Of a stretch of DNA of 52,600 bases, positions 17,382 to 51,264 are shown in pieces. Every line of letters begins with the position of its first letter. Position 1 is the first letter of the stretch. The position numbers were made by a program, and so were the translations under genes. A model generated the notes under the pieces. That model made no database searches. It worked only from the letters and a program-made list of their open reading frames with translations, and was not told the origin of the DNA. The stretch is from a virus (taxonomy: Duplodnaviria > Caudoviricetes). The stretch is from the IMG/VR virus record IMGVR_UViG_3300017783_000031, positions 1-52,600 of that record. One strand, written 5' to 3'.

Positions 17382-18275
17382 ATGGCTTTAGCACAATATA
17401 CACCGAAAGAATACTACAATAGTAAGGATCAAGGATATTATCAATTTGTTACAATAGATGATATAATAAGCAATTTTTTGGTTTCGTATGTTGGCGATGA
17501 TAAAATTATAAAGTCAGCAAAAAGAAATGAAATAGCATACCATGCTCAAAGAACACTGCAAGAGTTAAGTTATGATACTATAGACAATGTAAAATCTATA
17601 GAAGTTGAAATACCTCCTTCTATGTCGCTACCATTACCCCATGATTTTGTAAACTATGTTAGAATAACATGTTTAGATGAGGCCGGTATTGAAAGACCCT
17701 TGAAACCAAGCCAAACAACAACTGCTCCAACACCATATTTGCAAGACGACGATTATAATTATTTATATGACGACAAAGGCAATGTTTTAATAGGTAAAGA
17801 ATCAGAAGCAGCAAAAAGATTTAAAGGGCAAAATAATAATTCTTATAGTACAACAGACGCATCAGACATAACTTATTTAGAAGAGGGCTATGGCTATAAT
17901 GTTGATTTTGGAAAAAGATATGGAATTGATCCTGCTACTGCTAATAAAAATGACACATTTGTAATTGATCAGCCTAGAGGTGTTATATCATTTAGTAGTG
18001 GTGTTAAAAATAAAATAATTATTATTAAATATGTTTCCGACGGGTTGAATGTTGATGAAGACATGAAAATACATAAGTTTGCTGAGGAAGCAATGTATAA
18101 ATCAATTGCATTAAATATAATGTCGGCTAAATCAAATATACCCGAGTATCAAATAAATAGATTAAAAAAAGAAAGGAAAGCAGCTATGCGTTCGGCTAAA
18201 CTTAGATTAGCTAATATAAATATAGAAGATCTTACTCAAGTAATGAGAGGCAAATCAAAACAAATTAAACACTAA
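17382..18275 (+). CDS. Second tail ring/adaptor structural protein
   Basis: LPHDFVNYVRI, YVSDGL, IHKFAEEAMY motifs; located between the ring protein and the stabilization protein. Confidence 0.6.
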   Translation: MALAQYTPKEYYNSKDQGYYQFVTIDDIISNFLVSYVGDDKIIKSAKRNEIAYHAQRTLQELSYDTIDNVKSIEVEIPPSMSLPLPHDFVNYVRITCLDEAGIERPLKPSQTTTAPTPYLQDDDYNYLYDDKGNVLIGKESEAAKRFKGQNNNSYSTTDASDITYLEEGYGYNVDFGKRYGIDPATANKNDTFVIDQPRGVISFSSGVKNKIIIIKYVSDGLNVDEDMKIHKFAEEAMYKSIALNIMSAKSNIPEYQINRLKKERKAAMRSAKLRLANINIEDLTQVMRGKSKQIKH

Positions 18276-21200
18276 TGGCGGAACTAAAGCACACCTTTAC
18301 GTCGGGTAGAATGAATAAAGACCTAGATGATAGACTTGTACCTAATGGCGAGTATACTGATGCTTTAAATATACAGATTTCTTCTTCTGAAGGTGACGAT
18401 GTTGGCTCAATAGAAAACACATTAGGTAATGAACTTTTGTCTGATTTGCAGTTACAAAACGCAAAAACACTAGGCAGTATATCTGACACTAAAAAAGATA
18501 AAATATACTGGATAGTTACTTCTGATTCTATAGACGCTATTTATGAGTTTGATGAAAAAACTAAAGAAATAAAACCTGTATTGTTAGATGAAAAAACAAA
18601 TCAAACAATAACAATAAATGATGTTTCTATATATTCAAATGTTGAAGGTGAATTATCCTTTTCATATAATGAATTAAAATTTAATAGTTTATTAGGTAAA
18701 AATCTAGAAAAAGCCACGCCTGATTCTCCACAAAAATATGGGTTAACACATAGCAATGTAGACATAGAGTGTTCAGAAATTGATTTAAAAATAACAGCGC
18801 CAAAAAACACAAGTGTTTTAAATAACAATAACGAAAGTATTGAATTTAAAAATATACCTTATAACGGAAAACATTTTGGAAATTTAGATGTAAACTTTAC
18901 TTACACTGATTCTGGTTTTTTAAATTTTTCTAAAAACAACTTAATAACAGGCATAAACATAATTGATGGACTTTTATTTTGGACAGATAATATAAATCAA
19001 CCTAGAAGAATAAATATATCTGAATTTAAAAACTACAAGCATATTGCTAATCAAACGCAAATATCATACAAGTATAAGGATTCAAATGGCACTGTTAATA
19101 TTGATTATAGACCAATAAATGAAGATGATATATCTGTAATTAAAAAAGCTCCTCTAAAAGCTCCTAATATAACTTTATTTGACACTGATATAACAGGTAA
19201 TACAACTATTACAGCACAAGTTAATTTTGTAGATAAAATAGCTGGGGATGAAATTGATATAACTGATTTTGGAGGTATACCTAATTGGGTAGAAGGCCAA
19301 TCTATTTTGTTTGTTACGGAAGATGCCGATTTATCTTTAGAATGTAGGGTGCAAAGCATCGATGCTACAAATAAAAGTATTAAAGTTATTATTTCTAATA
19401 TAGATTCAGATGAACCTGTTACTAAGAGTCATTTATTTACAGCTAATTTAGTAGAAGAAGATCCTATATATGAATTGGCTTTTGTAAGATTTGCGTATAG
19501 ATGGAAATATAAAAACGGAGAATATTCTGTTTTTTCCCCTTTTACTCAACCAGCTTTTTATCCAAACTTTAAAGTAAATAGAAACGGTTTTAAATACGAT
19601 GGTAAAGAGGCTTTTAACTATGGTATGGTAAACCAAGTTCGTAAGGTTTTATTAGAAGATTTTGACTTAGGATCAGATGAGGTAGAAGATATTGAGATAA
19701 TATTTAAAGAAACTAGAAATAATAATATATATATATTAACTACTAAAAAAAGATTAAATTTTGAAAACTCTTTTACAATAAGAAAAGAGCAAATTAAATC
19801 TTTAGTAGCTAACGATCAACTACTCAGACAATGGGATAATGTACCAAGAAAAGCAAAAGCACAAGAGGTTACTGCTAATAGAGTTATTTATGGTAATTAT
19901 ATACAAAATTATGATGTATTTGAAGACCCTGATTTTGATGTAAAACTAAATACCGCAAACGCAGAAAGAAGAATAAGCGCTAAGTCAAATCGCAATTACC
20001 AATTGGGTGTTGTTTATTCAGATGAATACAATAGACAAACACCTGTTTTTTCTAACGACACAGGTGTTATAACTATACCTAAATCTAAATCGTCCGAACA
20101 AAATAGAATATCTGCGTCTATAAAAACTCCACCACCGCCCTGGGCGACACACTATAGGTATTTTATAAAAGATACATCTGGTGAGTTCTATAATTTAGCA
20201 GCGGACCGGTTCTACAATGACGTTGAAAACGGTTTTATGTATATAAGTTTTCCTTCTTCAGAAAGAAACAAAGTTACAGAAGAACATTATTTGTTGTTAA
20301 AAAAGAATCATGGAGACAATAATCCTGTTGATTCTACTGAAAACAGATATAAAATAATAGATATATCTGCTGAGCCACCTGAATTTATAACTGCTAGAAA
20401 AAGACTTGTAAGATCATTAGGCAATATAGTATTTACTGATGACTATAAAGGCTCTGGCGGTGGAACTACAATAACAAATAAAGATGATGCTAGTAACGCC
20501 GCACCATTAAACGAAAGAGCAATTATACAGTTAAAACAGGCTAATGGTAGTCCTGATGGTGTAGAGTTAGAAGAAACTAAAGAAATAAAGCCTGGTAGAT
20601 ATATAAATTTTGAATATTTAGGTAAAGAATCAAAACCTTACAAAATAAAAAGACTATCACAGGATCCAGCCGGATCTAATGAAATAAAAATAGATTTTGA
20701 AGAGCCTTTTGGAGAAGATGTTGAAATAATATATAATAAAACAAGTGGTAATCTAGGAGATCAAAACACAAACCTAGGTGTTAGCATGAACATCTTAGAA
20801 GAGTTTATTGCTGCTGGTGATAAAGAATTTGATGGAAGATTTTTTGTTAAACTTAAATCTAATTCTACTTTAATAAACTCTATAATAACACAAGATATTG
20901 GGGGAGTAAGCTATCTAGTTAAATTTGATCTTAATCTAATAGGTATATATTCATCAAAAGATTCTAATGGTACAGGTAGATCTGGATCCAATAAGTGGAG
21001 AAATGTAAACAGAGGAAAAGATAGCGCAGCGACTAATCCAAGAAATGATTTTGTTGTTCATAAAGGTGGGACCGCAATACCTGGTAGTACTTATGAAACA
21101 GGTAAAAGACATGACGCTGGATCAATAGAGTATAATATTTCAGTTGAAGCTTCTACAAGACGTAGAAATTCTGAAGTTGAAAAATTACAAAAATTAGCTA

Positions 21201-24200
21201 AAGTTGGTAATTTTGTAAGATTTGTAAATCCTGATGGTACTCCACATCACGATAAAATATATGAAATAGGTCAAACTTTAAGAACCACTCATGAAACAAA
21301 GCATGGAGGTAATTATTTTACAAAATTTAGAACCTATGTAGAATTACATTTTAGATTCGTAGACGAAGACGGAAATTTTCAACCATTATTAAAAGATATA
21401 GTAACAAGAGGTGATGATACTTGGATGAATGAACCAAGGATGGAGATACTAGAAGAGAGGGTAGAAGAAAATCTAGTAGTAAAAGAGCCGGCTATATTTG
21501 AGACGGAGCCTTTAGAAAGTAAAACAGAATTAAATATATATTTTGAGGCTTCTGATATACTTCCAATAAGTATACACGGTGATAATTACAACTTAAACTG
21601 GTATAATTGTATTTCCTTTGGTAATGGTGTTGAGTCTAATAGAATAAGAGATGATTATAATGCTGTGTTTATAGACAATGGTGTTAAAGCTTCAACTGTT
21701 TTAGATGAACCATTTAAAGAAGAACACAAATTCAACTCGTTAATATGGTCGGGTATAGTAAACTCAAGATCAGGCGTTAATAGATCTAATGAGTTTAATA
21801 TGGCAAATCCTATAACAAAGGATTTTTTACCATCATATGGGAGCATACAAAAACTACACGGATGGGATGATTCTATGGTTATTATTTGTGAAGATAAAAC
21901 ATTAAGGGTTTTAGCAAATAAATCAGCTCTTTACAATGCTAATGGGTCTTCTAATTTAATATCTGATAGTAGAGTTATAGGAGATCCTATAGAATACAAC
22001 GGGGAATATGGCATTGGAACATATCCAGAGTCTTTTGCTTCGCATGGATTTAGATGCTATTTTGCTGATAAAACTAGAGGTGTTATTATTAGACTATCAA
22101 AAGATGGGTTAACTCCAATATCAAAAAACTACATGAATAGTTTTTTCCGTCAAAGATTATTTGCCGCAAATACTTTTTACGGAAGCTATGATGCAAGAAA
22201 AAAATTATATAATATTTCTTTTGACGGATTAGATACGGTTTGTTTTTCTGAAGACGTAAACGGCTGGGTAACAAGAGCATCATTTATACCTGAAAATGCT
22301 TTATATTTAAACAACATTTATTATACGTATAGAAATGGTGATTTATGGCAGCATGACAGCCCTAATGTAGTTAGAAATAACTATTATGGAGCACAATATA
22401 AATCTCATGTAGAATTTATAATAAATGATAACCCCTCTGTTATAAAAAAATACAAAACTTTAGGTTATGAGGGTACTGCCGGATGGATTGCTAAAAATAT
22501 AGTTACAGATCAAGTTACTGGAACAGAAGCAACTTTTACGCCTAAAGAAAATAAATTTTTTACTAATATAACACAAGAGGCTAAAAAAACAAATAATCTT
22601 GATCATAAAAACTTTTCAACACAAGGTATAGGTAGATCAATTAGAAAGCCAAACGAAGTAGATTATGATGATACTGTAGGGGCACAAGATCTTGATGATT
22701 TTAATGTAAAAATAAATGACGGACAGTCTTGGAGTAGTGATATAAAACAATCAATAGAAATAAAACAGGATGGCAGCATAGATGATATTCAAATAACATT
22801 ATTTCCTACAAGTGGTTATTTGATAGAAAAAGCACAATTTACAACACCAAATAGTTTAATAACTGTTGAAAATTCTACACCTAATGTTATTGTTACTGTA
22901 AAGGGAGATTATCTTGAATCTTTAAATCCGTCTGATAACGATACAAAATATATAACACTAGCAGGAAAATCTGTTTTACAACCAATAAAAGTAAGTGGTA
23001 GTTATAGTATACAAGGGCCTTTTGTAACAGATGATATAGGTAATGGAAATTATCAAATAACAGAAGATCCTAATACTGTTCAGCAGATAAATAAAAGAAT
23101 AATAAAACCTTTAAATGGTTATTATATTAATGTTGAAGATATAACTATAGATAATTCTTTAATTTCTATAAGCAAGAATAAACTTGGCAATGGAAATATA
23201 GAAGTTATAGAAACTATAACTATACCAAGAGCAAAATCTACAAACATAAACTACACTATAAGCGCAGTAGCTCATGAAATAATAATACCTGATAAAGTAA
23301 TATTTACTAAAAATTTAAACACTAGCGATGTTAACAACGATGGTGAAACAAGAACGTTAATATTAAATGGAGAAAAAAATTCAGAATATGAACTTGTTTT
23401 TTTAGAAGGCTCTAGTGTTATAAAATCGGTAAGTGGTAAAATTCCATCAAATACTTTAAAATCAAATGTAGATTTAATTTTTCCAGCTGGGGACACGGCA
23501 CAGACGTATACTGTTCAATTAAAGACAGTATCTGGTACTGTTTTTTCTAATACTTTTGGAGATGAAACTATTAATATTTATAGAAAAGTTAGGTATGTTA
23601 ATGATATAACATTTACTGTAGATGTTGGAAGTAATATTACAACAACTCAATCTTTAACAAATAGTCCTGTTATTGTTTCTGGTTATGTAGATGATATTGC
23701 TGATATTGATTTTACGTTTTCATATACATTAAATGGCACAGGTTACAGCCTTAGTAAAGTTCCTGTCATGGATGATGTAGTTTTTAGTACTAACAATACT
23801 GGAACAAAAATAATATTTAATACGTTTACTCTAACCACAGCAACAAATGATACTTTATTAATAAAAGGTAAATTAACATCTACTAGCTTTATTGATTCAG
23901 AATTTTTTGAATTAAACTTAAATAATCTATTAGATAAAAATGTAACAATAACTTTTGCTTATTCTAACACTATAGCGGGAGGTTCGGCTACATCAAATTA
24001 CACTGTAGCCGGATATAATGGTGCAAGTATACCTTATACAATAACAACAAAAGCAAATAAGCCACATACAAATATGATTGGCCGTTATTTTGAGTTGACC
24101 TCGGCTTCAGGTTATAAGAATAAAAAAACATTTACTAATATAATACCTTTTAAAATATACGACTCATCCAACAATGATGTTACAGCAACCTTTGCTTTTA

Positions 24201-26029
24201 ACGAAAAAGTTTCTTTTGGTCCGCGCCCATCTGTTAATAATAGTAAAATTGTTGTTGGTTTTAAAAATAAGACTTTTGTAGCTCCTTCAACAAATCAAAC
24301 ATATACAATTAGACCTTTAGAAGAAATTTTTGAAGCTAATACCGGCGTTGAAATAAGAGCTCTTATAGCTTTCGCAACACAATTAAAATCATCAGGTTTT
24401 ACTAAAATAAATGGATATTCAAGCGTTGCAGCTTACAATATGACAATTAATACTGTTTCTACAGGTCAAAATTTTGAAAGCGGATCAATAAACCAAAGAT
24501 CGTTAGATAATATAGACAGAGCATTAAGCGGAGAAGGAGTCACACAAAGATGGTTAGGTTCAAATGGCAATGAACAGTTTTTTAATGGTAATGGATTACA
24601 AGGTATAACTAATTCTTTTAGTGAAACAAGCTCTGGTAGGTACTGGATTACAGATGGATCAGCAGGAAATAAATTGATGCAGCATGTTATGAAAATGCCT
24701 GATTCATTGTTTTATTGGTGGGATCCAGATAATACTAGTACGTCAAAATATAATATAACAAACTTAGGTAGTTATTTTACAAAAGCAACTGCTGGTACTT
24801 ATACCGATATATTTGGAGATTCAAAACAAGTAACCAATACTTTTGAGGTTAGTGCAGACGGAAAAACACTCACAGTTAACATGCTAATCAATTTTAATAA
24901 CACTCCTGTTGGTAATACATATTATATACCTGAACTTTTAGTAACTGCTGTTAATGACCACCCTGGTTTTTTCAATAAATATCTTGCAAAAGTAGGTAAC
25001 TACGATCATTATAAAGACCCTTGTACTTTGGTTCATGATGATAATATTGATTTTGTTGAAGTTATTTCTAAAGATTTACCATTAAAAAAAGGTAGTCTTG
25101 TGTATTTAAGAACAAATGATGGAGATTTATTATATCTTGGCAATAGATTCCCTGCATATATAAAAGATAACCCAAATCTTTTATATAGTGATGAAAATAA
25201 ATTTCTTAATGCAGGTGCTAAATCTGTACCTAAAGGACATTATAATTTCATTCAAGGTGAAGCGCCTATAACTCTTGAAGATACAAATTGCTCAATAGTT
25301 AAATTTAATGATTTCCCTACTGTTAAAAAAACAGGTGAACTTGGATATATTAAATCTGTTACTTCTAATAATGGTGGTATTTATCAATATAAAGAAATTT
25401 ATTTAAAAAATACCGCTTATGCAAATAAAGAAATAACGATAAAAGGAACCTATTTTGACATGAGATATGCGAATTATAGTAATATTCCTAATAATAATGT
25501 TAGTAATAATGCTTTTAATAAAAATCTTATGATTGTAACATCCCCTTCATATCCAAAAGGAATCTATGCTCAAAAAGCAATTGAGCATGTTGAAACTTTT
25601 GGTTGGAAAATAACAGATCCTGCATTAAATACTTGGGAAGCTAAAGTCCAACTTGATTCAAAAGGTGAAGGCACATTGCAAATTGGTGTTCAAATATATT
25701 CAAATGTTAACGTAAATGGTTTAATAGTATATAGTGAACAAATAACAGGGCCTAATGGTGAAACATTAGCCTCTCATGGTGATGCTTATTATGATTTAAC
25801 AAGAATGAGAATAGGTTCATCAGCTAAAAAACCAGAACCAAAATACGAAATAGATTATTCTGTTAAGCAATTTGTATTTAAAGGCAATTATAAACCATAT
25901 ACTGATCATCCTGAAAATGCTGATTTTCCTTCTCTTTACAATATAGACAGTAATGGTACTATAGTTGAATCAGATCAATGGGTTAATTATTATACAGGAC
26001 AAATGTTTTTACCTACTAAAAATCAATAA
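18275..26029 (+). CDS. Tail stabilization/muzzle (nozzle) protein with a long C-terminal extension (2584 aa)
   Basis: N-terminal GRMNKDLDDRLVPNGEYTDALN, WTDNINQPRRINI, FAYRWKYKNGEYS, GNGVESNRIRDDYN, YGIGTYPESFA motifs of P22 gp10-like/crAss muzzle proteins. Confidence 0.75.
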   Translation: MAELKHTFTSGRMNKDLDDRLVPNGEYTDALNIQISSSEGDDVGSIENTLGNELLSDLQLQNAKTLGSISDTKKDKIYWIVTSDSIDAIYEFDEKTKEIKPVLLDEKTNQTITINDVSIYSNVEGELSFSYNELKFNSLLGKNLEKATPDSPQKYGLTHSNVDIECSEIDLKITAPKNTSVLNNNNESIEFKNIPYNGKHFGNLDVNFTYTDSGFLNFSKNNLITGINIIDGLLFWTDNINQPRRINISEFKNYKHIANQTQISYKYKDSNGTVNIDYRPINEDDISVIKKAPLKAPNITLFDTDITGNTTITAQVNFVDKIAGDEIDITDFGGIPNWVEGQSILFVTEDADLSLECRVQSIDATNKSIKVIISNIDSDEPVTKSHLFTANLVEEDPIYELAFVRFAYRWKYKNGEYSVFSPFTQPAFYPNFKVNRNGFKYDGKEAFNYGMVNQVRKVLLEDFDLGSDEVEDIEIIFKETRNNNIYILTTKKRLNFENSFTIRKEQIKSLVANDQLLRQWDNVPRKAKAQEVTANRVIYGNYIQNYDVFEDPDFDVKLNTANAERRISAKSNRNYQLGVVYSDEYNRQTPVFSNDTGVITIPKSKSSEQNRISASIKTPPPPWATHYRYFIKDTSGEFYNLAADRFYNDVENGFMYISFPSSERNKVTEEHYLLLKKNHGDNNPVDSTENRYKIIDISAEPPEFITARKRLVRSLGNIVFTDDYKGSGGGTTITNKDDASNAAPLNERAIIQLKQANGSPDGVELEETKEIKPGRYINFEYLGKESKPYKIKRLSQDPAGSNEIKIDFEEPFGEDVEIIYNKTSGNLGDQNTNLGVSMNILEEFIAAGDKEFDGRFFVKLKSNSTLINSIITQDIGGVSYLVKFDLNLIGIYSSKDSNGTGRSGSNKWRNVNRGKDSAATNPRNDFVVHKGGTAIPGSTYETGKRHDAGSIEYNISVEASTRRRNSEVEKLQKLAKVGNFVRFVNPDGTPHHDKIYEIGQTLRTTHETKHGGNYFTKFRTYVELHFRFVDEDGNFQPLLKDIVTRGDDTWMNEPRMEILEERVEENLVVKEPAIFETEPLESKTELNIYFEASDILPISIHGDNYNLNWYNCISFGNGVESNRIRDDYNAVFIDNGVKASTVLDEPFKEEHKFNSLIWSGIVNSRSGVNRSNEFNMANPITKDFLPSYGSIQKLHGWDDSMVIICEDKTLRVLANKSALYNANGSSNLISDSRVIGDPIEYNGEYGIGTYPESFASHGFRCYFADKTRGVIIRLSKDGLTPISKNYMNSFFRQRLFAANTFYGSYDARKKLYNISFDGLDTVCFSEDVNGWVTRASFIPENALYLNNIYYTYRNGDLWQHDSPNVVRNNYYGAQYKSHVEFIINDNPSVIKKYKTLGYEGTAGWIAKNIVTDQVTGTEATFTPKENKFFTNITQEAKKTNNLDHKNFSTQGIGRSIRKPNEVDYDDTVGAQDLDDFNVKINDGQSWSSDIKQSIEIKQDGSIDDIQITLFPTSGYLIEKAQFTTPNSLITVENSTPNVIVTVKGDYLESLNPSDNDTKYITLAGKSVLQPIKVSGSYSIQGPFVTDDIGNGNYQITEDPNTVQQINKRIIKPLNGYYINVEDITIDNSLISISKNKLGNGNIEVIETITIPRAKSTNINYTISAVAHEIIIPDKVIFTKNLNTSDVNNDGETRTLILNGEKNSEYELVFLEGSSVIKSVSGKIPSNTLKSNVDLIFPAGDTAQTYTVQLKTVSGTVFSNTFGDETINIYRKVRYVNDITFTVDVGSNITTTQSLTNSPVIVSGYVDDIADIDFTFSYTLNGTGYSLSKVPVMDDVVFSTNNTGTKIIFNTFTLTTATNDTLLIKGKLTSTSFIDSEFFELNLNNLLDKNVTITFAYSNTIAGGSATSNYTVAGYNGASIPYTITTKANKPHTNMIGRYFELTSASGYKNKKTFTNIIPFKIYDSSNNDVTATFAFNEKVSFGPRPSVNNSKIVVGFKNKTFVAPSTNQTYTIRPLEEIFEANTGVEIRALIAFATQLKSSGFTKINGYSSVAAYNMTINTVSTGQNFESGSINQRSLDNIDRALSGEGVTQRWLGSNGNEQFFNGNGLQGITNSFSETSSGRYWITDGSAGNKLMQHVMKMPDSLFYWWDPDNTSTSKYNITNLGSYFTKATAGTYTDIFGDSKQVTNTFEVSADGKTLTVNMLINFNNTPVGNTYYIPELLVTAVNDHPGFFNKYLAKVGNYDHYKDPCTLVHDDNIDFVEVISKDLPLKKGSLVYLRTNDGDLLYLGNRFPAYIKDNPNLLYSDENKFLNAGAKSVPKGHYNFIQGEAPITLEDTNCSIVKFNDFPTVKKTGELGYIKSVTSNNGGIYQYKEIYLKNTAYANKEITIKGTYFDMRYANYSNIPNNNVSNNAFNKNLMIVTSPSYPKGIYAQKAIEHVETFGWKITDPALNTWEAKVQLDSKGEGTLQIGVQIYSNVNVNGLIVYSEQITGPNGETLASHGDAYYDLTRMRIGSSAKKPEPKYEIDYSVKQFVFKGNYKPYTDHPENADFPSLYNIDSNGTIVESDQWVNYYTGQMFLPTKNQ

Positions 26030-28534: not shown

Positions 28535-31500
28535 ATGTTTGAATTAGACGGGAATGAATATACATTAGATCAAGTTCAAGCCGCGGCTTATAAGTCGGGT
28601 ATGATGGTTGATGATTATGTTCAAAAATATAAATTCAAAGAATTGGGAAAGACAACTCCCACATCACCGGGTGCGGATGTGGAGGAAAATGCAGCACCCG
28701 AATTGACCGTTACGGAATCTCCATCGGTAGATATTTCTTTGGAGTTACCTCAAACAGGAACAGTTGATTCAACATTAGTTACTCCTCCACGAAAAAAAAC
28801 ACCGTCTGAATTAAGGATAGATGTTACAAGACAAGCGATGGCAAGAGCTAATCCTATGGCTACCCTTATGCCTGATTTTATGATACCTATATTAGCTGAT
28901 TGGACCGCTATGACAGCAGAATTAGGGGCAGGGGTTGTAGATACTGCTGAAATATTATATGAATTGGGATTAGCTGGAATAAGTGATAAAACTTTTGATA
29001 GAATATCTCGTGAACAAAGAATAGATATGTCAGAAGTTTACGAGGGCGTGGAAGCACTTAGAAATATTAGAGAAAAAAAATATGATGAACAAGGCAATGA
29101 GTTAGATGCTATTGGTTTGTGGCAATCAGGTCGCAAAGGTGAGTCAGCACAACAATTTATTAGCGAAGCGATTGGTTCGTTACCTGCTACTGTTTTAACT
29201 TATATGATGCCAGGATATGGCTCAGCTGTAATAGGGCTTGGTACATTTGGTTCTGAATTTGAAAGGAATTTAAAAGAACGACCTGAAGAAACAGCAGGAT
29301 TGATGTTGGGTAATGCTGCTTTAAAAGGAGGATCAGAAGCTTTATTTGAATGGTTAGGGGGATATACCTTTAAAACATTAACTAGAGCAGCTACAAGAGG
29401 GGTAACGGAAAAAGTTATTAAAGATATGACACGTACCGGGGTTCCTTATGCTCTTCGTAAAATACTAGGCATTGGTGCACAAGCTGGGGTTGAAGCTCTT
29501 ACAGAATCAGCAACAGGGGTTACACAATTAGCGGCTGATGAAATGTTTTTTGATGACGAAATAGAAGCTGCGCAATATTGGAGAACAGCTATTCATAGCG
29601 GGGTAGTTGGTGGATTAATGGGTGGTGGTATTACAGCTGGAACTATAGGAACGCAAGTAGCGTTGACTGGCGATAGAAAAAAAATAGCGATGTCAATAAT
29701 TGCACCAAAAAAGTGGAGGCAAGAGCAATTACAAATTGGTATCGAGATTGATAGAGCAACTAAGGATTATGAAAATGCTCCTGATCGGAAAAAAGCATAT
29801 TTTAAAAATAAAATAGAAGTATTAGAACAACGCCAACAAGGGAGGGCTGATAGATTATCTAAAGTTTGGGATGGTTTAACTAGAGCAGAAAAAATAGAAT
29901 ATGCGAGATTAATAGATGAAACTAATTCTCAATTAGATATTATAGGCAATGTTAAATATACTAACCAAGCCCAAAAAGAAGCGCAAGTACTTTTAGATAG
30001 CGCTTATACAGAAATGGGAGCTATATTAGGTAAAGATAATATAGACATAGAACAAGAGCAAGCGTTGTCAAGAATAATTAAAAGTGGAGTTAGTATAGCA
30101 GAAGCGGTTGGAGTTGCAAAAAAAGTTTTAAAAGATATAAATATAGAAAATGTTTCTAATGAAGTATTTCAAGAAGTATCAAAAGCAATAACTGGTAAAA
30201 AAAGTAAATCAGATGCTCTATTTTTTGATGGTAATAATATATATATAAATAGAGATATTTCAGCAGCTACAGAACAAACAAATGTATTGGGACACGAACT
30301 ATTACATTATGTTATGGCTAAAAATTTTAATGTTAGCGATGAATCTTTAGGCCCATTAGTAAATAGCTTTAAAGATTATTTAAAACAAACTCAGCCGAAG
30401 ATATTAGAAAGAATAGAACAAAGACTTAAAAAAGCTTATGAGGGTGAAGCACCTTTGGAAGAATATTTAAATATTTTTTCAGATATTATAGCTAGAGAAA
30501 AAATAATAGTTGATGAAAGCATTACTGATAAAATAAAAAATTCAGCAACTCGTCTTTTAAGTAGTTTCGGATTTGGTTCGGTTAAGTTAGAAACAGGAAA
30601 AGATGTTTTTAATTTTTTAAGAAACTATACTAAAAATGTTAATAATCTAAAGTTTAAGCAACTTGGCGTTGACATTAAGTCTAGTAAAATAGGTAATGAA
30701 ATTAAAGAAGACGTTGAAAGATTTTCTAAGTCTGGAGCTTCAGATAAAGTACAAGAAATATATGAAGCCCAAGGCGCTGCAAATGCTTTTGATATAATTG
30801 CAGAGTTTAAACCTATTGTAGATAAAATTGTAAATAAATATAGAAACGTACCTGGTTTTGAATATCAATTATTAAAAGATGAAATAGAAACAGGGAAACG
30901 CGGTATACTTGACATGATTATGGCATACACGCCTGAAAAAGCCAAGGGTGCACCATTAGCCGCTTATATAAATAAATTTTTACCAAAAAGAGCAATTGAA
31001 GCAGCTAATCGTATATTAGACACGGAATTTACATTAGATGTTACCGAGGCTAAGGGTGTTACAGATACCACTACTGAAGAAAGTATAGATATAACTGAAG
31101 AAGTTAATATAGCCGACGAAATAAAAAGTTTAAGAAAAGAAATTGGTCTACCAGAAGAGCTTATTACAAAAGTTAAAGATGCGGTAATAAAAACATTTGG
31201 TACAAAATTACCAAACCCTCAAGACCCTAAGTTTAGAGCGGAGTTACAAAAAAGGTTTAGAACAGAGCTTAAAAAACCAATGGCAAAATTTGTTGGTAGA
31301 CAAGAAGCATACGAATCTTTTTTACGTAATAATTTTAAATCTATATATGATAAACTACCTCAGTCAATATTAAATAAAAGATTTAAAGATTTTATTGAAC
31401 CTGTTGTTGATGAAAATGGAAAACAATTACGTGAAAAAACGGCCGAGGGTAATAAAATATTTACTAAGAAAAAAATTACGCCTGCTGAATTTATAAAATA

Positions 31501-34500
31501 CTTTTTAGGTTCTGATGTTGGAAGATCAACACAAGGAACTAGAAAAACTGCAATTGTTGAAGCTATAGCAGAAGAAATAGCATTTGATGCTACAATGGAA
31601 GTATTAAATAGTAACGATGTAAAATCTAAATACGAACAAATTGCTGAAATAACGGGTGATATATTGCCTGATAATTATTTAGCTCAAATAGCAAAACAAA
31701 TAGATAGAAATGAAGACTTTAGGTTTTCAAAAAGTATTCTTAATGATTCGGGATTAAGCAATCAAGAATTAAGCTCTATTTTATTTAAAGGATTTATTTC
31801 TGCTGCTGGTAAGCTTGACCCTAAAATAATTGAAGTATTATTAGATGATGCATGGACAAAAAGTTTTCCAATAGTATTAGAGAAATATATATTGCCTGGC
31901 TATGCTGAAGCAATAAAAAACAAATCTATTGAGGAACAAAGCGATATAAGTAAATATTTAATTAATATTATTTCAAGACCATTAAGAACAATCTCTAGAC
32001 AAACGGAGGAATTAAATTATAATACAAATTATAGATTATTTAAAAAATTACAAGAAATTGCAGGAGATAAAATTTTTGGGCCCAATGAACCTATTCGCCT
32101 TGACGAAAAAATTATAGAATATAAAGAAGGACCTAATAAAGGTAAATTTAAAGAAAAAAGAACTTATATAAGAGATGTTGATGGCGTAGCATTAGGATCT
32201 TCTACGTACAATACTTCGGTGCAGAGTTTTCATAAAGATTTAATAAATGATAAGCTTTCAAGAGAGGAAGTTGATGGAGTATTTAGCGAAAATAGGAATA
32301 GGTTAAAAGAATTAATATTTGGCCTTGGGACTGAAAATAAAGGTTTAGCTATATCTCTCATTAAACTTACTCAAAAAGATCAAAGAGGATTATTGAGGTC
32401 TTCTGGTAACATAGGGGGGATTGTACAAAATTATTCAGGTGAAACAGTATTTGAGCATCGACCGCCGGTACAATATTTATTTGAAAAAATAGTTAATTAT
32501 ATACAACGACCAACAGATGCAAAAAAAGAAAAATTAAATACGTTATTAGACACTGCTCAAATAAACGTAGTGCCAAAAGATTTTGCAGATATAGTTGATC
32601 AAGATTATAAAACTACTATTCCTAAAGATGGTAAAATAAGTTATGAAAAAGCATTAGATCAAACTAATTATAATTTTGATGGAATGTTTAGATTTTCTAA
32701 ATCATTAGATAAGGAGTTTAATCAGCTGTTGCAAGCAACTACTGGTGTTGAATGGACAAAAGAATTTTCACCTGTTAAAGCTAAAATGCTTGGCAGAGGA
32801 AAAGGTAAAAAGTTTTTTATACCATATTCAGCTGATGATTTTGTAGGTTTATTATACGCTACATTAGGTAAAGGTAAAGTAGGAGATCGGCAAATGGAAT
32901 GGTATAATGAAAATTTAATTAGACCTTTTTCCCGCGCTATTCAACAATTTGAAAATGCTAAGCAAAATTCATTGCGTAAATGGATGGAACTCAAAAAAGA
33001 AGCTATTAAAGATGTGCCTGGTAAACTTGATAAAAAAAATAGTTCAGGATTTACAAATCAAGATTCTGCTAGAATATATATATGGAAATCACAAGGAATG
33101 GAAATACCAGGTCTTGAAAACGATCCACAAACAATAAGTGAAAATCTTGAAATTGTAAAAAACAACCCTAAATTAAAAGAATTTGCTGATAGATTAAAAG
33201 CTTTGAATTCAGAAGGCTATCCAGAGCCAAGCGCTGATTGGTCTGCTGGGGATATTACAACAGACCTTGTATCATATGTTAATGATGTAAAACGATCTGA
33301 ATATTTAACACAATGGAAAGAAAATGTAAAAGAAATATTTAATGACCGTAATAAAAACAAGCTAAGAGCGTTATATGGAGATAGGTATGTTGAAGCTTTA
33401 GACGATATATTAGCTCGCATGAGTACGGGCCGTAATAGAAGAAGCGCAGCAAGTAAAGCTGAAAAAGCTTTTATGGATTGGACTAATAATTCTATTGGTA
33501 CGATCATGTTCTTTAATGCTAGATCAGCAGTACTGCAAACATTATCAGCAGTTAACTTTATAAACTTTAGCGATAACAATCCAATTAATGCAGGATTAGC
33601 TTTAGCTAATTTCCCGCAATATGCAAAAGATTTTACAACATTATTTAATTCTGACTTTTTAAAACAAAGACGTTCTGGCTTACAAACAGACGTAAACGCA
33701 GATGAAATTGCGAATGCAGCTGCTACATCACAAAACAAAGCAAAAGCAATGTTGAGTTATATTCTTAAAATAGGATTTGCCCCAACACAAATAGCTGACT
33801 CATTTGCAATTGCTTCAGGCGGTGCCACATTTTATCGCAATAGAATAAAAAAATATTTAAAAGAAGGATTAGAACAATCTGAAGCTGAAGCAAAAGCATT
33901 TACAGACTTTCAAGAAATAGCGGAAGAAACGCAACAATCCGCTAGGCCTGATAGGATATCATCGCAGCAAGCAGGCTCATTAGGGCGCCTTATATTAGCT
34001 TTTGGTAATACACCTATGCAATACGCTCGATTAACTAAAAAAGCTGCTTTAGATTTAATTAATGGGCGTGGAGATTGGAAGACAAATATTAGTAAGATTG
34101 CATATTATAGTGTAATACAAAATATTATATTCTCCGCTTTACAACAAGGTCTTTTTGCTTTATTATTTGATGATGAAGATGATGATGATGTTAAGTCTAG
34201 AATATTTAGAATAGGTAATAGTAGTGTTGACACATTACTTAGAGGTACAGGGGTTTATGGTGCCGCGGCTGCTACTGTTAAGAATATGATATTAGAAATT
34301 ATAGAACAATCTCAAAAGTCTAGACCAGATTATACACAAGTTGCAATAGAATCTACAGCAATTTCACCACCAATCAATTCAAAATTAAGAAAATTAATAT
34401 CTGCCGGTAAAACTTTTACTTATAAGCAAACAAAAGAAAAAGTGTTTACAAAAGGCTTTAGCTTAGAAAACCCTGCATTTATGGCGGCTGGACAAGTTAT

Positions 34501-34735
34501 ATCTGCTGGTACTAATTTTCCCGCTGACAGAGTTGTTAAAAAATTAGATCATTTGAGTATAGCAATGCAACCCGAAACAGAATTATGGCAATCAATTGCA
34601 TTATCTCTTGGGTGGAGCAAATGGGATCTTAATATGATTGAAAAGCAAACTTCTAATAAAACCTTAACAACAAAGCAGTTGCAAAACTTAATGAAAAGAA
34701 ATAATAATCTTAAACAATTAATGAAAAGAAAATGA
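28535..34735 (+). CDS. Giant internal virion (ejection) polyvalent protein: hydrophobic N-region, zincin metallopeptidase (HELLH), sigma70 region-2-like domain, uncharacterised domain, conserved helical C-terminal domain (2066 aa)
   Basis: HELLH at aa 587-591 with downstream EE at aa 642-643; RFSKS at aa 729, 1063 and 1386; IIAEFKPIVDKIVNKYR..GILDMIMAYTPEK..LAAYINKFL sigma-like segment. Confidence 0.75.
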   Translation: MFELDGNEYTLDQVQAAAYKSGMMVDDYVQKYKFKELGKTTPTSPGADVEENAAPELTVTESPSVDISLELPQTGTVDSTLVTPPRKKTPSELRIDVTRQAMARANPMATLMPDFMIPILADWTAMTAELGAGVVDTAEILYELGLAGISDKTFDRISREQRIDMSEVYEGVEALRNIREKKYDEQGNELDAIGLWQSGRKGESAQQFISEAIGSLPATVLTYMMPGYGSAVIGLGTFGSEFERNLKERPEETAGLMLGNAALKGGSEALFEWLGGYTFKTLTRAATRGVTEKVIKDMTRTGVPYALRKILGIGAQAGVEALTESATGVTQLAADEMFFDDEIEAAQYWRTAIHSGVVGGLMGGGITAGTIGTQVALTGDRKKIAMSIIAPKKWRQEQLQIGIEIDRATKDYENAPDRKKAYFKNKIEVLEQRQQGRADRLSKVWDGLTRAEKIEYARLIDETNSQLDIIGNVKYTNQAQKEAQVLLDSAYTEMGAILGKDNIDIEQEQALSRIIKSGVSIAEAVGVAKKVLKDINIENVSNEVFQEVSKAITGKKSKSDALFFDGNNIYINRDISAATEQTNVLGHELLHYVMAKNFNVSDESLGPLVNSFKDYLKQTQPKILERIEQRLKKAYEGEAPLEEYLNIFSDIIAREKIIVDESITDKIKNSATRLLSSFGFGSVKLETGKDVFNFLRNYTKNVNNLKFKQLGVDIKSSKIGNEIKEDVERFSKSGASDKVQEIYEAQGAANAFDIIAEFKPIVDKIVNKYRNVPGFEYQLLKDEIETGKRGILDMIMAYTPEKAKGAPLAAYINKFLPKRAIEAANRILDTEFTLDVTEAKGVTDTTTEESIDITEEVNIADEIKSLRKEIGLPEELITKVKDAVIKTFGTKLPNPQDPKFRAELQKRFRTELKKPMAKFVGRQEAYESFLRNNFKSIYDKLPQSILNKRFKDFIEPVVDENGKQLREKTAEGNKIFTKKKITPAEFIKYFLGSDVGRSTQGTRKTAIVEAIAEEIAFDATMEVLNSNDVKSKYEQIAEITGDILPDNYLAQIAKQIDRNEDFRFSKSILNDSGLSNQELSSILFKGFISAAGKLDPKIIEVLLDDAWTKSFPIVLEKYILPGYAEAIKNKSIEEQSDISKYLINIISRPLRTISRQTEELNYNTNYRLFKKLQEIAGDKIFGPNEPIRLDEKIIEYKEGPNKGKFKEKRTYIRDVDGVALGSSTYNTSVQSFHKDLINDKLSREEVDGVFSENRNRLKELIFGLGTENKGLAISLIKLTQKDQRGLLRSSGNIGGIVQNYSGETVFEHRPPVQYLFEKIVNYIQRPTDAKKEKLNTLLDTAQINVVPKDFADIVDQDYKTTIPKDGKISYEKALDQTNYNFDGMFRFSKSLDKEFNQLLQATTGVEWTKEFSPVKAKMLGRGKGKKFFIPYSADDFVGLLYATLGKGKVGDRQMEWYNENLIRPFSRAIQQFENAKQNSLRKWMELKKEAIKDVPGKLDKKNSSGFTNQDSARIYIWKSQGMEIPGLENDPQTISENLEIVKNNPKLKEFADRLKALNSEGYPEPSADWSAGDITTDLVSYVNDVKRSEYLTQWKENVKEIFNDRNKNKLRALYGDRYVEALDDILARMSTGRNRRSAASKAEKAFMDWTNNSIGTIMFFNARSAVLQTLSAVNFINFSDNNPINAGLALANFPQYAKDFTTLFNSDFLKQRRSGLQTDVNADEIANAAATSQNKAKAMLSYILKIGFAPTQIADSFAIASGGATFYRNRIKKYLKEGLEQSEAEAKAFTDFQEIAEETQQSARPDRISSQQAGSLGRLILAFGNTPMQYARLTKKAALDLINGRGDWKTNISKIAYYSVIQNIIFSALQQGLFALLFDDEDDDDVKSRIFRIGNSSVDTLLRGTGVYGAAAATVKNMILEIIEQSQKSRPDYTQVAIESTAISPPINSKLRKLISAGKTFTYKQTKEKVFTKGFSLENPAFMAAGQVISAGTNFPADRVVKKLDHLSIAMQPETELWQSIALSLGWSKWDLNMIEKQTSNKTLTTKQLQNLMKRNNNLKQLMKRK
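28645..28700 (+). promoter_or_regulatory. Predicted programmed -1 ribosomal frameshift signal (G GGA AAG plus H-type pseudoknot)
   Basis: In-phase slippery heptamer 28645-28651; stem 1 ctcc(c)acatc/gatgtggag, stem 2 cgggtgc/gcacccg. Confidence 0.65.
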
Positions 34736-40191: not shown

Positions 40192-40958
40192 AATGTATCT
40201 TTTACAAATGTTCCATCTATCATTCTGCCAGTTCTATTAGATATTTCATCATAAGCAGACTGAATACAGCTTTCAACGTCATATCCGACCAGTTTTGAGA
40301 GATTAGTAAGAACAACAACACTATCACCAATAGCATCAATAATACCTTCTTTATCATCTTCAAGTAATGCTTTGGCAAGTTCTCCTGTTTCTTCATATAA
40401 TTTAATTAGTTGTGTTTTAGGATCACCCTTGTCATATATACCACGCTCGTCTGCCCAGCCTCTAATAAGATCAAATATCTCAACCTTATTATATGTAGGT
40501 TTTGAGGAAAAAGCTTCATAATAAGCTTTATTATAAATAAAACAACGGTCATTGTTGTACATGGATGGTTTAGCATTTGCGATTATCCATTTTTTTGTTT
40601 CATTATTTATTTCAAATTCACCAAGACTTGTTTTCCATTTAAATCCTTCATTTTGATTTAAAACTTGCAATAAGTCTTGACGCTCACAATCAAATGTTGA
40701 TGTTTGCTCTGTGGGATTAACTTTCATTGATTTAATTTTTATTAAATTAGTATATAATTGCCTATCAATTTTATAGCCATAAAACTTTTGCAATTTTCTT
40801 TCCATTAATGATGCTTTATTTACATCTCTAGATGAGAATAAAACTTCATATTCATCTTTTTTATATCCTTGTTCATGTTCAACGCGTTTATTTAAATTAC
40901 ACGTCATTCCAATTTTTTGATTAGGAATATGATAAATATAATAATTTTTTTTAATCAT
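40188..40958 (-). CDS. mazG: Fusion protein: N-terminal GIY-YIG-like domain plus C-terminal MazG-like nucleotide pyrophosphohydrolase
   Basis: YYIYHIPNQKIGMTCNLNKRV at the N-terminus; WADERGI..KLYEETGELA..IIDAIGDSVVVL..AYDEISNRTGRMIDGTFVK at the C-terminus; start 40958 or 40970. Confidence 0.75.
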   Translation of the reverse strand: MIKKNYYIYHIPNQKIGMTCNLNKRVEHEQGYKKDEYEVLFSSRDVNKASLMERKLQKFYGYKIDRQLYTNLIKIKSMKVNPTEQTSTFDCERQDLLQVLNQNEGFKWKTSLGEFEINNETKKWIIANAKPSMYNNDRCFIYNKAYYEAFSSKPTYNKVEIFDLIRGWADERGIYDKGDPKTQLIKLYEETGELAKALLEDDKEGIIDAIGDSVVVLTNLSKLVGYDVESCIQSAYDEISNRTGRMIDGTFVKDTL

Positions 40959-41361
40959 AAATTTTATCATATTTAGCTACAACATATATATACTCATTGC
41001 TTTCGGCCATTCCAAAGCCAACTTCGGTACAACTATAACATAATTGCTGATAATATTCAGGAGTATCATAAGCTTCAAACCAAGCTACTGCCGCGTCTAA
41101 ATAATAATTTCTAGAATTCATTATATCATTTTTAGGTAATCTATATAATGATTCTCCATACATATCAGAAGATAAAATTAAGTCATCTTCAATAGCAATA
41201 TAATTAGCCCAAGCTTGAGCTTCTTTTTTAAGCTGTCTATTACTAGATAGCTCTTGCATATTGTAATACGTTCTTACGGTATTTTGAAACTTTACAGCTC
41301 TTCCGTATTGTGCATTAATAAATAAAGGTAAAAATAGTAAAAGTAAATTTAATTTTTTCAT
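40951..41361 (-). CDS. Secreted CAP/SCP-domain protein
   Basis: Signal peptide MKKLNLLLLFLPLFINAQ; N.VR..LKKEAQAWA..GESLY..AVAWF..TEVGFG..YVVAKY pattern. Confidence 0.65.
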   Translation of the reverse strand: MKKLNLLLLFLPLFINAQYGRAVKFQNTVRTYYNMQELSSNRQLKKEAQAWANYIAIEDDLILSSDMYGESLYRLPKNDIMNSRNYYLDAAVAWFEAYDTPEYYQQLCYSCTEVGFGMAESNEYIYVVAKYDKIYD

Positions 41362-45749: not shown

Positions 45750-46493
45750 TTAAAGAAAATCAATTACTTGAGCTGGGTTTACACTCTCGATTAACTTATT
45801 TATTGCATCCCTTTTTATTTGAGATATTCTTACATATGAAGCTGTGCCTTTTATCTGTAATTTATCAGCAATTGCTTTAGCTGACATTTTATCACAGTCT
45901 AAACCATAACTCATACGCAATACATCATATTCTTTTATACTTAAATGTGATTGCATTATAGATAATAAATACTTATTCATTATATCTATATTGTAATCTT
46001 TTGAATTATCTGGTATTTCAAAAAATGTATTATTATCTTTATCTGTTTCATCTAGCGAATAAAATATACTATTAAAAAACATTTCAACTGTTTTTTGTTC
46101 CGCCTCAGAATTTTTTCGCATATCATTTAACTTATGCTCAGGAATACGTATATTACCCCTGTTTATATCAATAGCTCTGCGTATAGCACCTTTAATTCTT
46201 TTACTTAAAAAACTATTAAGTGTGCGTTGGGGTTCAGTTGAATCAGTAATTTGATTCCAATCTATTTTATCAACCGCCGCTATTAATCCTATTGCTCCTT
46301 CTTGTATTAAATCATTTATAGTCATAACGCCTGACGCTTGTTGAGATGTAGAAAATTTTCTTGCTATTGTTTCAACCAAACCCATGTGAGATATAATTAA
46401 ATCTTGTCTACTATCTCCGGTATCGGGTATTTCGCTATAACTTGCAAGGTCATGTTTAAACCTAACGTAGTTTTGTATGTTATACTTCTTCAT
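45750..46493 (-). CDS. Phage sigma70-family RNA polymerase sigma factor
   Basis: Region 2 LVETIARKF..DLIQEGAIGLIAAVDKID, IRIPEH, region 4 LSIKEYDVLRMSYGL..VRISQIKRDAINKL. Confidence 0.85.
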   Translation of the reverse strand: MKKYNIQNYVRFKHDLASYSEIPDTGDSRQDLIISHMGLVETIARKFSTSQQASGVMTINDLIQEGAIGLIAAVDKIDWNQITDSTEPQRTLNSFLSKRIKGAIRRAIDINRGNIRIPEHKLNDMRKNSEAEQKTVEMFFNSIFYSLDETDKDNNTFFEIPDNSKDYNIDIMNKYLLSIMQSHLSIKEYDVLRMSYGLDCDKMSAKAIADKLQIKGTASYVRISQIKRDAINKLIESVNPAQVIDFL

Positions 46494-47097
46494 TCAATAG
46501 CATCTTTTCTTGCTTAATCTCTAAAGTTATATTTCTGTATATAGTTCTTGTTGACACGTTTAATAAATTAGCTATTTTAGAAATAGTAATTTTTTTATTA
46601 TTATCATGTATGCCAAGCATTGCTTCATATATATCTCCTGCCTCTGCTTTTTTCTTTCTACCTATAATACTGCCAACTATTTTTAGTTTTTCAGTAGATG
46701 TGAGACCAGAATATTCTTTAAATATAATTTTACGCATTTTATTTTTTGGAGGGGCTTCTAAATCTTTTTCAAAAACCTCGTCAACTAAATTAATTATACT
46801 TGATTCATTTAGTTTTATAACTACAAACCCATTATCCTTATCAGCAAGATAGCGCGTTAATTCTAAAATATCGTCATATGTTAATTTTTTATTTAAATAC
46901 CATAATACAAGTAAGTGCCATTTAAATGATTTATAAGATGTTATTTTTGCTTTAGATCTAAATAATTCATAACATTCGTATGTACCATTTTCATAAAAGT
47001 TACCCCAACTAAAAATTTCAGAAGGGGTATCAGTAATAGGTCCGCGTCGATATACGATACGTCTTCGATGTAAATACTCGAGATTTTTATGTGACAT
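46480..47097 (-). CDS. DNA-binding protein with C-terminal HTH (possible replication initiator or regulator)
   Basis: ITISKIANLLNVSTRTIYRNI helix-turn-helix. Confidence 0.6.
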   Translation of the reverse strand: MSHKNLEYLHRRRIVYRRGPITDTPSEIFSWGNFYENGTYECYELFRSKAKITSYKSFKWHLLVLWYLNKKLTYDDILELTRYLADKDNGFVVIKLNESSIINLVDEVFEKDLEAPPKNKMRKIIFKEYSGLTSTEKLKIVGSIIGRKKKAEAGDIYEAMLGIHDNNKKITISKIANLLNVSTRTIYRNITLEIKQEKMLLNEEV

Positions 47098-48037: not shown

Positions 48038-48248
48038 ATTTATTAGCTTTTATAATATGTTTATTAATAAACTTACCAATTGACTCAGAATATTTCATAG
48101 ATAAAAAAGTATTGGTTGGTACACCAATATAACTATATTTTTTACCATCATTAAATTTTAAATCTAATATTTCATTTTCATAGTCATACTCGGCTTTACT
48201 AATAGCCATAGAGTTTACATGCACTGTTTCTTTGTTTACTTTAATCAT
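48015..48248 (-). CDS. KTSC-domain protein
   Basis: VNSMAISKAEYD..LDLKFNDGKKYSYIGVP..SESIGKFINKHI. Confidence 0.85.
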   Translation of the reverse strand: MIKVNKETVHVNSMAISKAEYDYENEILDLKFNDGKKYSYIGVPTNTFLSMKYSESIGKFINKHIIKANKYEYAYKK

Positions 48249-48648
48249 TTGTTAATTTATTTAATTGTTCTTCTAATATTTCAACACGCTTTAAAATGCG
48301 TTCAAACGTCATATCAAATTCTTGAATGCGCCCAGGTGGTATATATTTTTTATCTAATTTAGTAGATATTTTATCATATATATCATTCATATATGGATCG
48401 TATTTGGCTTCAGTATCATATTTTTTTAAACCATTTATAACTGTAGCGTGATCGCGATTTACTTGTTTACCTATAGCTGATAAGCTTGCATATCTACAAA
48501 ACTTACGGGCTAATTTAAAATATATAAATCTTGCCTGTGCTAATTCTCTTGTTCTTGTTTTTGAACTTAAATTATTTATACTAAGTTCATATTGTACTAA
48601 ATCAAATATTTCTTTAGTTTTAACTATTCGTTTGTTTTTAATATCCAT
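48241..48648 (-). CDS. Protein with a DnaA domain IV-like (Bac_DnaA_C) HTH
   Basis: LSSKTRTRELAQARFIYFKLAR..SLSAIGKQVNRDHATVINGLKK matches the RDHxTV signature. Confidence 0.8.
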   Translation of the reverse strand: MDIKNKRIVKTKEIFDLVQYELSINNLSSKTRTRELAQARFIYFKLARKFCRYASLSAIGKQVNRDHATVINGLKKYDTEAKYDPYMNDIYDKISTKLDKKYIPPGRIQEFDMTFERILKRVEILEEQLNKLTND

Positions 48649-50665: not shown

Positions 50666-50701
50666 ATTTATTATCCGGTTATTAACGTGTTTGCTTTGTA
50701 A
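50666..50701 (-). promoter_or_regulatory. Early promoter-like motif, copy 1
   Basis: - strand TTACAAA-gcaaa-CACG-ttaataacc-GGATAATA. Confidence 0.7.
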
Positions 50702-50790
50702 TTTGCGTATAGCAAAATGGTTATGATAAATGGTATAGCTATTGCAATACCTTTAAAAAATTCGTTGGGGTCTATTGGTATGTGGTTCAT
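50671..50790 (-). CDS. Small membrane peptide (39 aa), not in the track
   Basis: MNHIPIDPNEFFKGIAIAIPFIITILLYANYKANTLITG; shares a 28-bp leader/start repeat with the next gene. Confidence 0.5.
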   Translation of the reverse strand: MNHIPIDPNEFFKGIAIAIPFIITILLYANYKANTLITG

Positions 50791-50808
50791 AATATTTAAT
50801 TTTAATTG

Positions 50809-50982
50809 TTATCCTATATATTCTAATAATTTTTTAATCTTCTTTAAATTTTTGTGTGCGATCTGTGCATTCATAAAGTATGCATAGTCTGGTCCAATCT
50901 CAACTAGATCATCTATTGTTTGACGTAGTTGGTATAATTTGTCTTTTACTATTATTGTTTTGTTATGTGTGTTAGTATCCAT
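50809..50982 (-). CDS. Small early protein (57 aa)
   Basis: Start reassigned to ATG 50982 (MDTNTHNK). Confidence 0.5.
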   Translation of the reverse strand: MDTNTHNKTIIVKDKLYQLRQTIDDLVEIGPDYAYFMNAQIAHKNLKKIKKLLEYIG

Positions 50983-51160: not shown

Positions 51161-51264
51161 AATCCTAAGTGCATTTCAATTTCCCAGTTTTCCATTTCAG
51201 TTATTTGTTCTTCAGTGTAGCTTGTATTAGCAAGCATTTCTTCTAAGTAGTATTGATTCATCAT
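51157..51264 (-). CDS. Tiny acidic early protein (35 aa)
   Basis: Read by hand, MMNQYYLEEMLANTSYTEEQITEMENWEIEMHLGL. Confidence 0.45.
   Translation of the reverse strand: MMNQYYLEEMLANTSYTEEQITEMENWEIEMHLGL

Follow-up and report, generated by a model that had tools for sequence, protein, structure and literature searches.

A sigma domain-2-like module within a giant, putative cargo protein of a phage from a viral metagenome

Phages are known to begin early transcription by three routes, which are the use of the host holoenzyme, the injection of an entire RNA polymerase (as in N4, crAss-like, and jumbo phages), and the injection of polymerase-modifying enzymes (T4 Alt). A delivered sigma-type module, if real, would be a fourth, and it would explain how phages with non-host-like early promoters and no polymerase of their own get started. 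This analysis concerns a candidate for such a module in IMG/VR record IMGVR_UViG_3300017783_000031 (positions 1 to 52,600, hereafter the window), a linear viral metagenome record of 52.6 kb with an estimated completeness of ~83% and a G+C content of ~32%. The candidate lies in P0001, a giant open reading frame (ORF) of the late gene block. In the favoured reading, residues (aa) 732-831 of P0001 form a diverged domain 2 of the sigma-70 family, from which a flexible linker leads to a 200-aa domain of unrecognised fold.

In established sigma factors, domain 2 binds the clamp helices of the beta-prime subunit and recognises the -10 element. The phage module resembles domain 2 of the sigma-70 family (PF04542; regions 1.2 and 2.1-2.4), especially that of group 3 and extracytoplasmic function (ECF) factors. 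The conserved segments occur in the same order, and the same helical fold is matched over 80-92 residues at a root-mean-square deviation (rmsd) of 2.6-3.3 A, with SigB (8x6g_H), sigma28 (6pmj_F), and AlgU (8z6g_B) as the best rows. Unlike these domains, the module sits in a 2066-aa protein, falls below Pfam detection, carries an extra N-terminal helix, and is followed by no recognisable region 3 or 4. T4 gp55 offers a parallel, as a small late sigma that is essentially a domain 2, has no need of region 4, and recognises one -10-like element only. However, gp55 is a free protein made after infection that needs gp33 and the sliding clamp, whereas the domain considered here belongs to a giant late protein. 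Free phage sigmas such as phiEco32 gp36 and its SU10 orthologue also bring phage-encoded promoter specificity to the host core polymerase, but both are free proteins made after infection. According to the SU10 report, one peptide of the SU10 sigma was found in polyethylene glycol-precipitated, unpurified phage, the protein is listed as a middle-gene product, and the authors warn of early and middle products in such material. This single peptide does not count as packaging evidence.

Other comparisons come from proteins carried in the virion. According to the crAss001 paper, the muzzle gp44 is followed by the cargo proteins gp45 and gp46 and then by the polymerase-associated gp47, gp49, and gp50, all of which were found in virions by mass spectrometry. 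The phi14:2 preprint reports the zincin gp65, the two-barrel virion RNA polymerase gp66, and gp67 in virions, fused in some phages into a polyprotein thought to be cleaved. These blocks (phi14:2 gp65-gp67; crAss001 gp45-gp50) are delivered so that early transcription can begin, and P0001 shares with them the giant size and late position downstream of a muzzle gene and the presence of a zincin domain. In contrast to them, it has no polymerase catalytic motif and no sequence similarity to phage records, and a sigma2-like domain stands in the polymerase's place, so transcription would have to rely on the host core polymerase. For polyvalent proteins, Iyer et al. (2017; PMC5512222) propose entry together with the DNA, processing by zincins, and a role in jump-starting transcription; their main text contains no instance of the word sigma or of the Greek letter. 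A full-text literature search, outside subscription journals and supplements, found no description of a sigma domain within a virion or ejection protein.

The features of P0001 that bear on the sigma-like domain are the following (window positions).

28535..34735, plus strand: giant ORF P0001, 2066 aa, the last large gene of the plus-strand late block
30719..30733, plus strand: first RFSKS boundary motif (aa 729-733); of 161 homologs aligned here, F in 59, S in 98, K in 88, and S in 84
30728..31027, plus strand: sigma domain-2-like helical domain (aa 732-831), from AlphaFold2 helices, VIA, Atlas, and hhalign
31043..31120, plus strand: acidic, poorly conserved linker (aa 837-862), predicted disordered
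31121..31720, plus strand: C-domain of the unit (aa 863-1062), a predicted helical fold with a small hairpin
31721..31735, plus strand: second RFSKS boundary motif (aa 1063-1067); of 80 homologs aligned here, F in 76, S in 78, K in 64, and S in 52

The initial annotation had pointed to a peptide resembling sigma region 2 and had put it at aa ~750-828 (nucleotides ~30785-31017). The peptide is found at aa 754-825 (30794-31009), and VIA, Atlas, and hhalign agree on its likeness to region 2. The domain lies just after the first RFSKS motif and the unit ends at the second, with 334 aa between aa 729 and 1063, as had been described. An AlphaFold2 model of aa 729-1068, built on 59 sequences, has a mean predicted local distance difference test (pLDDT) score of 83.9. 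Its N-domain comprises model residues 4-100, with helices at residues 4-29, 31-39, 49-58, 63-69, and 80-100. When this model was compared with 48,161 PDB chains by VIA-align, ranks 1-25 were all sigma factors or initiation-complex chains (Z 8.0-5.4), aligned over model residues ~4-103 (aa 732-831). The best row is SigB 8x6g_H (Z 8.0, rmsd 2.6 A, 86 residues), and after it come sigma28, AlgU, ShbA, the T4 late complex, SigE, pro-sigmaK, sigma32, SigA domain 2, RpoS, SigR, and sigma70. Sigma is named in 17 of the 25 titles, four rows (ranks 5, 9, 21, and 22) are initiation-complex chains, and four more (AlgU, CnrH, BldN, and WhiG) are likewise sigma factors. The rank 5 chain, 7d7d_F (Z 7.2, rmsd 3.1 A, 90 residues), belongs to an entry whose title names only a gp45-dependent activation complex; we take this chain to be T4 gp55. 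TFIIB and cyclin folds appear only under Z 5.4.

Two approaches of other kinds give the same answer. In the ESM Atlas, a search with protein-language-model features, the Sigma70_r2 set accounts for 27 of the 30 named matches (scores 0.96-0.97). With hhalign, the alignment of 59 module sequences against 19 diverse copies of the free phage sigma placed module positions 23-99 on sigma positions 33-113, that is, region 2 (P 2.3e-4, probability 44%); a shallower sigma alignment of 21 close copies gave P 0.0048 and a probability of 7%. The 59-sequence module set (A2, A3) holds sequences from 57 of 80 loci together with locus L009 and the window, the other 23 having been dropped by eye because they came from the same contig or had identical scores. 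Positions at least 90% conserved in both families coincide in the hhalign result, with module G59, R91, and R98 on sigma G66, R99, and R106. The segment that aligns with region 2.2 is strongly conserved, and the helix matched to regions 2.3-2.4 likewise ranks with the best-conserved parts of the module. The resemblance of aa 732-831 to sigma region 2 goes beyond chance, since fold, language-model features, and profile comparison agree, and the domain is very probably a true relative of sigma domain 2.

The assignment has to be set against several results that weigh against it. Pfam Sigma70_r2 gave no match at E<=10 to P0001 or to aa 734-1062, and among the modules of the 59 relatives it matched one, at E 0.0079, under the cut-off. 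Sequence-profile searches of the PDB with 9 and with 59 sequences found no sigma, PHROGs gave no usable sigma match for the giant protein, and Foldseek against the PDB with the two-domain model returned nothing at E<=0.001. The structural match to sigma region 2 proposed as a check by the initial annotation is present in VIA ranks 1-25 and absent from Foldseek. Even with the deeper sigma alignment the hhalign probability is only 44%, and the best VIA Z of 8.0 falls within the range that VIA calls common for helical models. A predicted complex of the module (A3) with residues 200-380 of the Flavobacterium johnsoniae beta-prime subunit, run without controls, scored 0.24 (mark 0.32), a value that speaks neither for nor against binding. 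A generic bundle of four helices, scoring best against sigma factors by chance, would account for the negative Pfam and Foldseek searches and for Z values of 5-8, which are common for helical models. As such values alone are ordinary, it is the uniformity of the VIA list that carries weight, and here the top 25 of 48,161 chains are all of one family or from transcription-initiation complexes. Moreover, three methods of different kinds give the same family in the same register. A chance resemblance is accordingly very improbable.

The rest of the unit does not appear to complete a sigma factor. Model residues 109-134, which form the linker, have a pLDDT below 50, and the second domain of the two-domain model spans residues 135-330. 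Folded alone, the C-domain reaches a pLDDT of 90.5 and a predicted template modelling score of 0.85. VIA listed 0 of 48,161 PDB chains for it at Z>=5; the best row had Z 4.5, and none was a sigma 3 or 4, although by the rule of this method absence from the list does not exclude a match. Foldseek against the PDB found none at E<=0.001, and in BFVD the C-domain has one match, an uncharacterised giant viral protein (E 3.3e-4). The C-domain (31121-31720, plus strand) is a candidate new fold and a constant companion of the sigma-like domain in closer relatives. The initial annotation had already seen no obvious region 4 in the unit, and VIA and Foldseek on the C-domain likewise gave no sigma match. 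With no sigma 3 or 4 found, -35-type recognition and flap binding would be missing, a further point against a sigma function. The unit thus appears to be one sigma domain and a partner domain of unrecognised fold, neither a complete sigma nor a polymerase. The initial annotation was right to see a look-alike of sigma domain 2 in the giant ORF, but its term sigma subunit was an overstatement, because only domain 2 and a domain of unrecognised fold were found.

The following features bear on the protein that carries the module.

18275..26029, plus strand: 2584-aa virion protein; PF25729 crAss_MUZ_C, E 7.5e-8, above cut-off; phrog_14478 virion structural protein, 1.5e-125
30293..30307, plus strand: HELLH, a zincin-type HExxH motif (aa 587-591); H, E, and H identical in 129 of 129 aligned homologs
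32690..32704, plus strand: third RFSKS boundary motif (aa 1386-1390); of 75 homologs aligned here, F in 40, S in 66, K in 62, and S in 51
32705..34732, plus strand: C-terminal module, conserved, in which a single hydrophobic stretch of transmembrane type (aa 1860-1878) precedes an acidic run

P0001 consists, in order, of a variable N-terminus, a zincin-like region, the sigma2-like unit, a variable cassette, and the conserved C-terminal module. Over 205 homologs, aa 751-1050 and 1401-2000 are conserved and aa 1-500 and 1101-1350 are variable; this set was picked by the middle region of P0001, which biases coverage there. The segment between RFSKS motifs 2 and 3 (aa 1068-1385; 31736-32689, plus strand) behaves as an exchangeable cassette, being aligned in 15-28% of the 205 homologs while its neighbours are aligned in >80%. 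FSKS occurs three times in P0001 (aa 730, 1064, and 1387), each time preceded by R; the first two RFSKS motifs frame the 334-aa unit, and K/R-F-S-K-S is kept in relatives at all three domain boundaries. For the HExxH motif, 136 of 206 homologs matched aa 540-700. The zincin region matches Peptidase_M78 weakly (E 0.0078-0.027, under the Pfam cut-off) and a phrog_87 metalloprotease at E 0.029. For the C-terminal 1004 residues, the nearest Atlas viral clusters carry LPD39 (score 0.91) and LPD38 (0.89), which is a lead only. The remaining parts of P0001 have no Pfam or PDB match. A two-barrel catalytic DFDxD-type motif, as expected of a crAss-type virion RNA polymerase, was not found in P0001, and the sole polymerase-type D-x-D-x-D lies inside the acidic run at aa 1880.

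With its giant multidomain build, its zincin-like peptidase, and its Atlas leads to LPD38/LPD39 clusters, P0001 resembles the polyvalent proteins of phages and conjugative elements. The 2584-aa muzzle-domain protein is encoded four genes upstream, with three small genes between, and the giant ORF fills the slot where crAss-like phages keep the zincin and virion-RNA-polymerase block. To judge from its sequence, P0001 has the expected marks of a polyvalent or cargo polyprotein, namely a giant multidomain protein in the virion gene block and an HExxH motif of the zincin type, and a cargo polyprotein is what it most likely is. Packaging we infer from gene order and architecture, that is, from the crAss-type muzzle upstream, the invariant HExxH, and the conserved KFSKS boundaries. 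On the other side, P0001 has no virion PHROG match, and tblastn of whole P0001 against 50,697 phage records gave no match. In the proposed mechanism, the giant protein would be a polyvalent-type polyprotein serving as cargo or for ejection. It would be loaded into the capsid, leave it before or together with the DNA, and might be cut at the KFSKS sites. Inside the cell, the sigma2-like domain would dock on the host core RNA polymerase, and the phage would thereby hold transcription before any phage gene expression. The chances that the giant protein delivers a polymerase-docking module appear about even.

A sigma2-derived fold might instead have been reused away from RNA polymerase, in packing, scaffolding, or channel-building, or the module might act in the producing cell and never be delivered. 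Packaging and polymerase binding both rest on inference, the second domain of the unit has no known fold, and internal virion proteins are largely helical, as the crAss001 paper says of its cargo proteins. Against such a reuse, the conserved segment aligned with region 2.2 and the two arginines are hard to explain by a packing role, and the gene stands where related phage lineages keep delivered transcription proteins. Reuse of this kind is unlikely.

A delivered docking module could also serve promoter choice, and the window carries a second sigma-type gene and a set of candidate targets.

45750..46493, minus strand: free-standing 247-aa phage sigma factor with regions 2 and 4; Pfam region 2 E 4e-5, region 4 E 2e-3; phrog_351 2.5e-22
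50670-50688, 51759-51777 (one mismatch), 52165-52183, 52391-52409, and 52469-52487, minus strand: five promoter-like sites ACG-N9-GGATAAT, all pointing towards the sigma gene

Both had been proposed by the initial annotation. The free-standing gene is a genuine phage sigma by the Pfam and PHROGs matches given above, and the promoter-like sites at 50.6-52.5 kb proved real, directed to the sigma gene and conserved in relatives. Each of the 10 module-bearing related records that were searched has a homolog of the free sigma. Its match is split, with 2 TAA stops, in G001 and split into two frames in G004, and G008 has two copies, near both record ends (loci L095-L098, L103, and L104 cover these three records). 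A 205-aa ORF (46480-47097, minus strand) shares 14 nucleotides with the beginning of the sigma gene and has a C-terminal helix-turn-helix (HTH_11, E 1.7e-5); it may be co-transcribed with the phage sigma, as the gene of a partner or regulator.

Exact copies of ACG-N9-GGATAAT number four in the window, all on the minus strand from 50670 to 52487. Among related records, there are six in G001, eight in G003, seven in G004, five in G005, and none in G002. All of these lie on the strand of the free sigma and upstream of its gene, except one of the eight in G003 (50200, just downstream). Looser counts in the window are at chance, with GGATAATA found 5 times against 3.55 expected and the long pattern with <=2 mismatches 43 times against 43.9, and the signal lies solely in the exact copies and the way they cluster. 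The element is compact, with ACGA 8 bases from GGATAAT, apparently too close for a standard -35 contact. The promoter consensus of Bacteroidota is TTG-N17-21-TAnnTTTG, and it occurs at 9 sites in the window against 7.1 +/- 2.7 in shuffles. In the most attractive but less certain form of the favoured reading, the sigma2-like module might be a starter factor, consisting of sigma2 only, that serves the compact ACGA-N8-GGATAAT promoters, which would lead into the full phage sigma gene.

Co-occurrence of motif and module was compared in 40 of the 80 sigma-bearing loci, on previously unsearched contigs of at least 58 kb chosen by hand and all with the free sigma. The module was detected in 19 of these 40 near-complete records. 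At least three exact motif copies occurred in 12 of the 19 module-bearing records and in 6 of the 21 without a detectable module, and these counts do not tie the motif to the module. The free sigma, present in all 40 records, is a simpler reader of the motif than the module, and the window itself, at ~83% completeness, may lack further early genes or promoters. However, homologous giant ORFs are present in five of the records scored as negative. A five-sequence search gave weak module-like matches at the same place in three of those five (independent E values 0.0027, 0.051, and 0.071) and values of 0.41 and 1.3 in the other two, while Pfam on four segments of such ORFs gave nothing. The comparison is therefore confounded by diverged copies of the module among the negative records.

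These counts also bear on an injected module that docks on the polymerase without promoter specificity, displacing host sigma (shut-off) or tethering the polymerase to the ejectosome or the entering DNA end, while the free phage sigma or the host sigma reads the promoters. That only domain 2 was found in the unit, that the free sigma accompanies the module in 10 of 10 related records and is also found in the 40 records, which were chosen for having it, and that 6 of 21 records without a detectable module have motif clusters all agree with docking alone. Nevertheless, the helix aligned with regions 2.3-2.4 is highly conserved and retains two arginines found invariably in the free sigma, and a binder of the clamp helices would not need these. 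Furthermore, a free sigma that reads the sites ahead of its own gene would itself need a starter. Docking without promoter reading seems improbable, at much the same level as reuse of the fold. The most specific version of the favoured reading holds that an abundant clade of marine Flavobacteriia phages has swapped the injected polymerase of crAss-like phages for an injected, protease-released, sigma2-only starter. On entry this starter would bring the host core polymerase to the ACGA-N8-GGATAAT promoters and so prime a paralogous full sigma that reads the same element, in a sigma cascade that starts itself. Taken as a whole, this chain of steps is doubtful and rather unlikely.

Relatives of the unit are numerous, with 763 proteins at E<=1e-3, 463 cluster representatives, and matches in 224 of 374 candidate IMG/VR stretches. 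Many align with only the first 110-150 residues of the unit (identity 55-69%), so the N-terminal module is the widely shared piece. It is widespread and unusually conserved for an internal protein. As the family is large (763 proteins; 224 viral-contig stretches) and well conserved, one biochemical test would annotate many marine viral genomes. Searches of the 50,697 phage records by tblastn with the unit and with the free sigma gave no match, nor did megablast.

The plus strand of the window carries the late genes from 71 to 35.7 kb, including those for terminase, portal, and capsid proteins and, at the start, a large fibre-like protein.

71-7093, plus strand: fibre-like protein of 2340 aa; matches to DUF7483, to a sialidase N-terminal-like domain, and to several Laminin_G_3 repeats (in six reported stretches)

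The minus strand, from 52.5 to 36 kb, encodes small early genes and then sigma, ERF, exonuclease, primase-helicase, thymidylate synthase, MazG, and ribonucleotide reductase. By terminase, the closest cultured phages are the Flavobacterium 'elemo' and Cellulophaga podoviruses (identity <=46%), and the closest record is the uncultured MW202828.1 (63% identity), which has a 3859-aa gene in the position of the giant ORF without similarity to it. The complete records related to this phage are only 58-71 kb long, and its muzzle C-terminal domain suggests that the crAss-type tail tip extends beyond the ~100-kb crassviruses. Among the early and middle genes are a CAP (cysteine-rich secretory protein) family domain (40951-41361, minus strand, E 2.4e-7) and a DnaA C-terminal helix-turn-helix domain (48241-48648, minus strand, E 5.9e-14). 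An AT-only string of the type AATAATATAT(T/C) stands directly before the ATG of many plus-strand genes (for example, 13051, 15865, 27071, and 28535), and upstream of these late genes it may be a translation-initiation context rather than a promoter.

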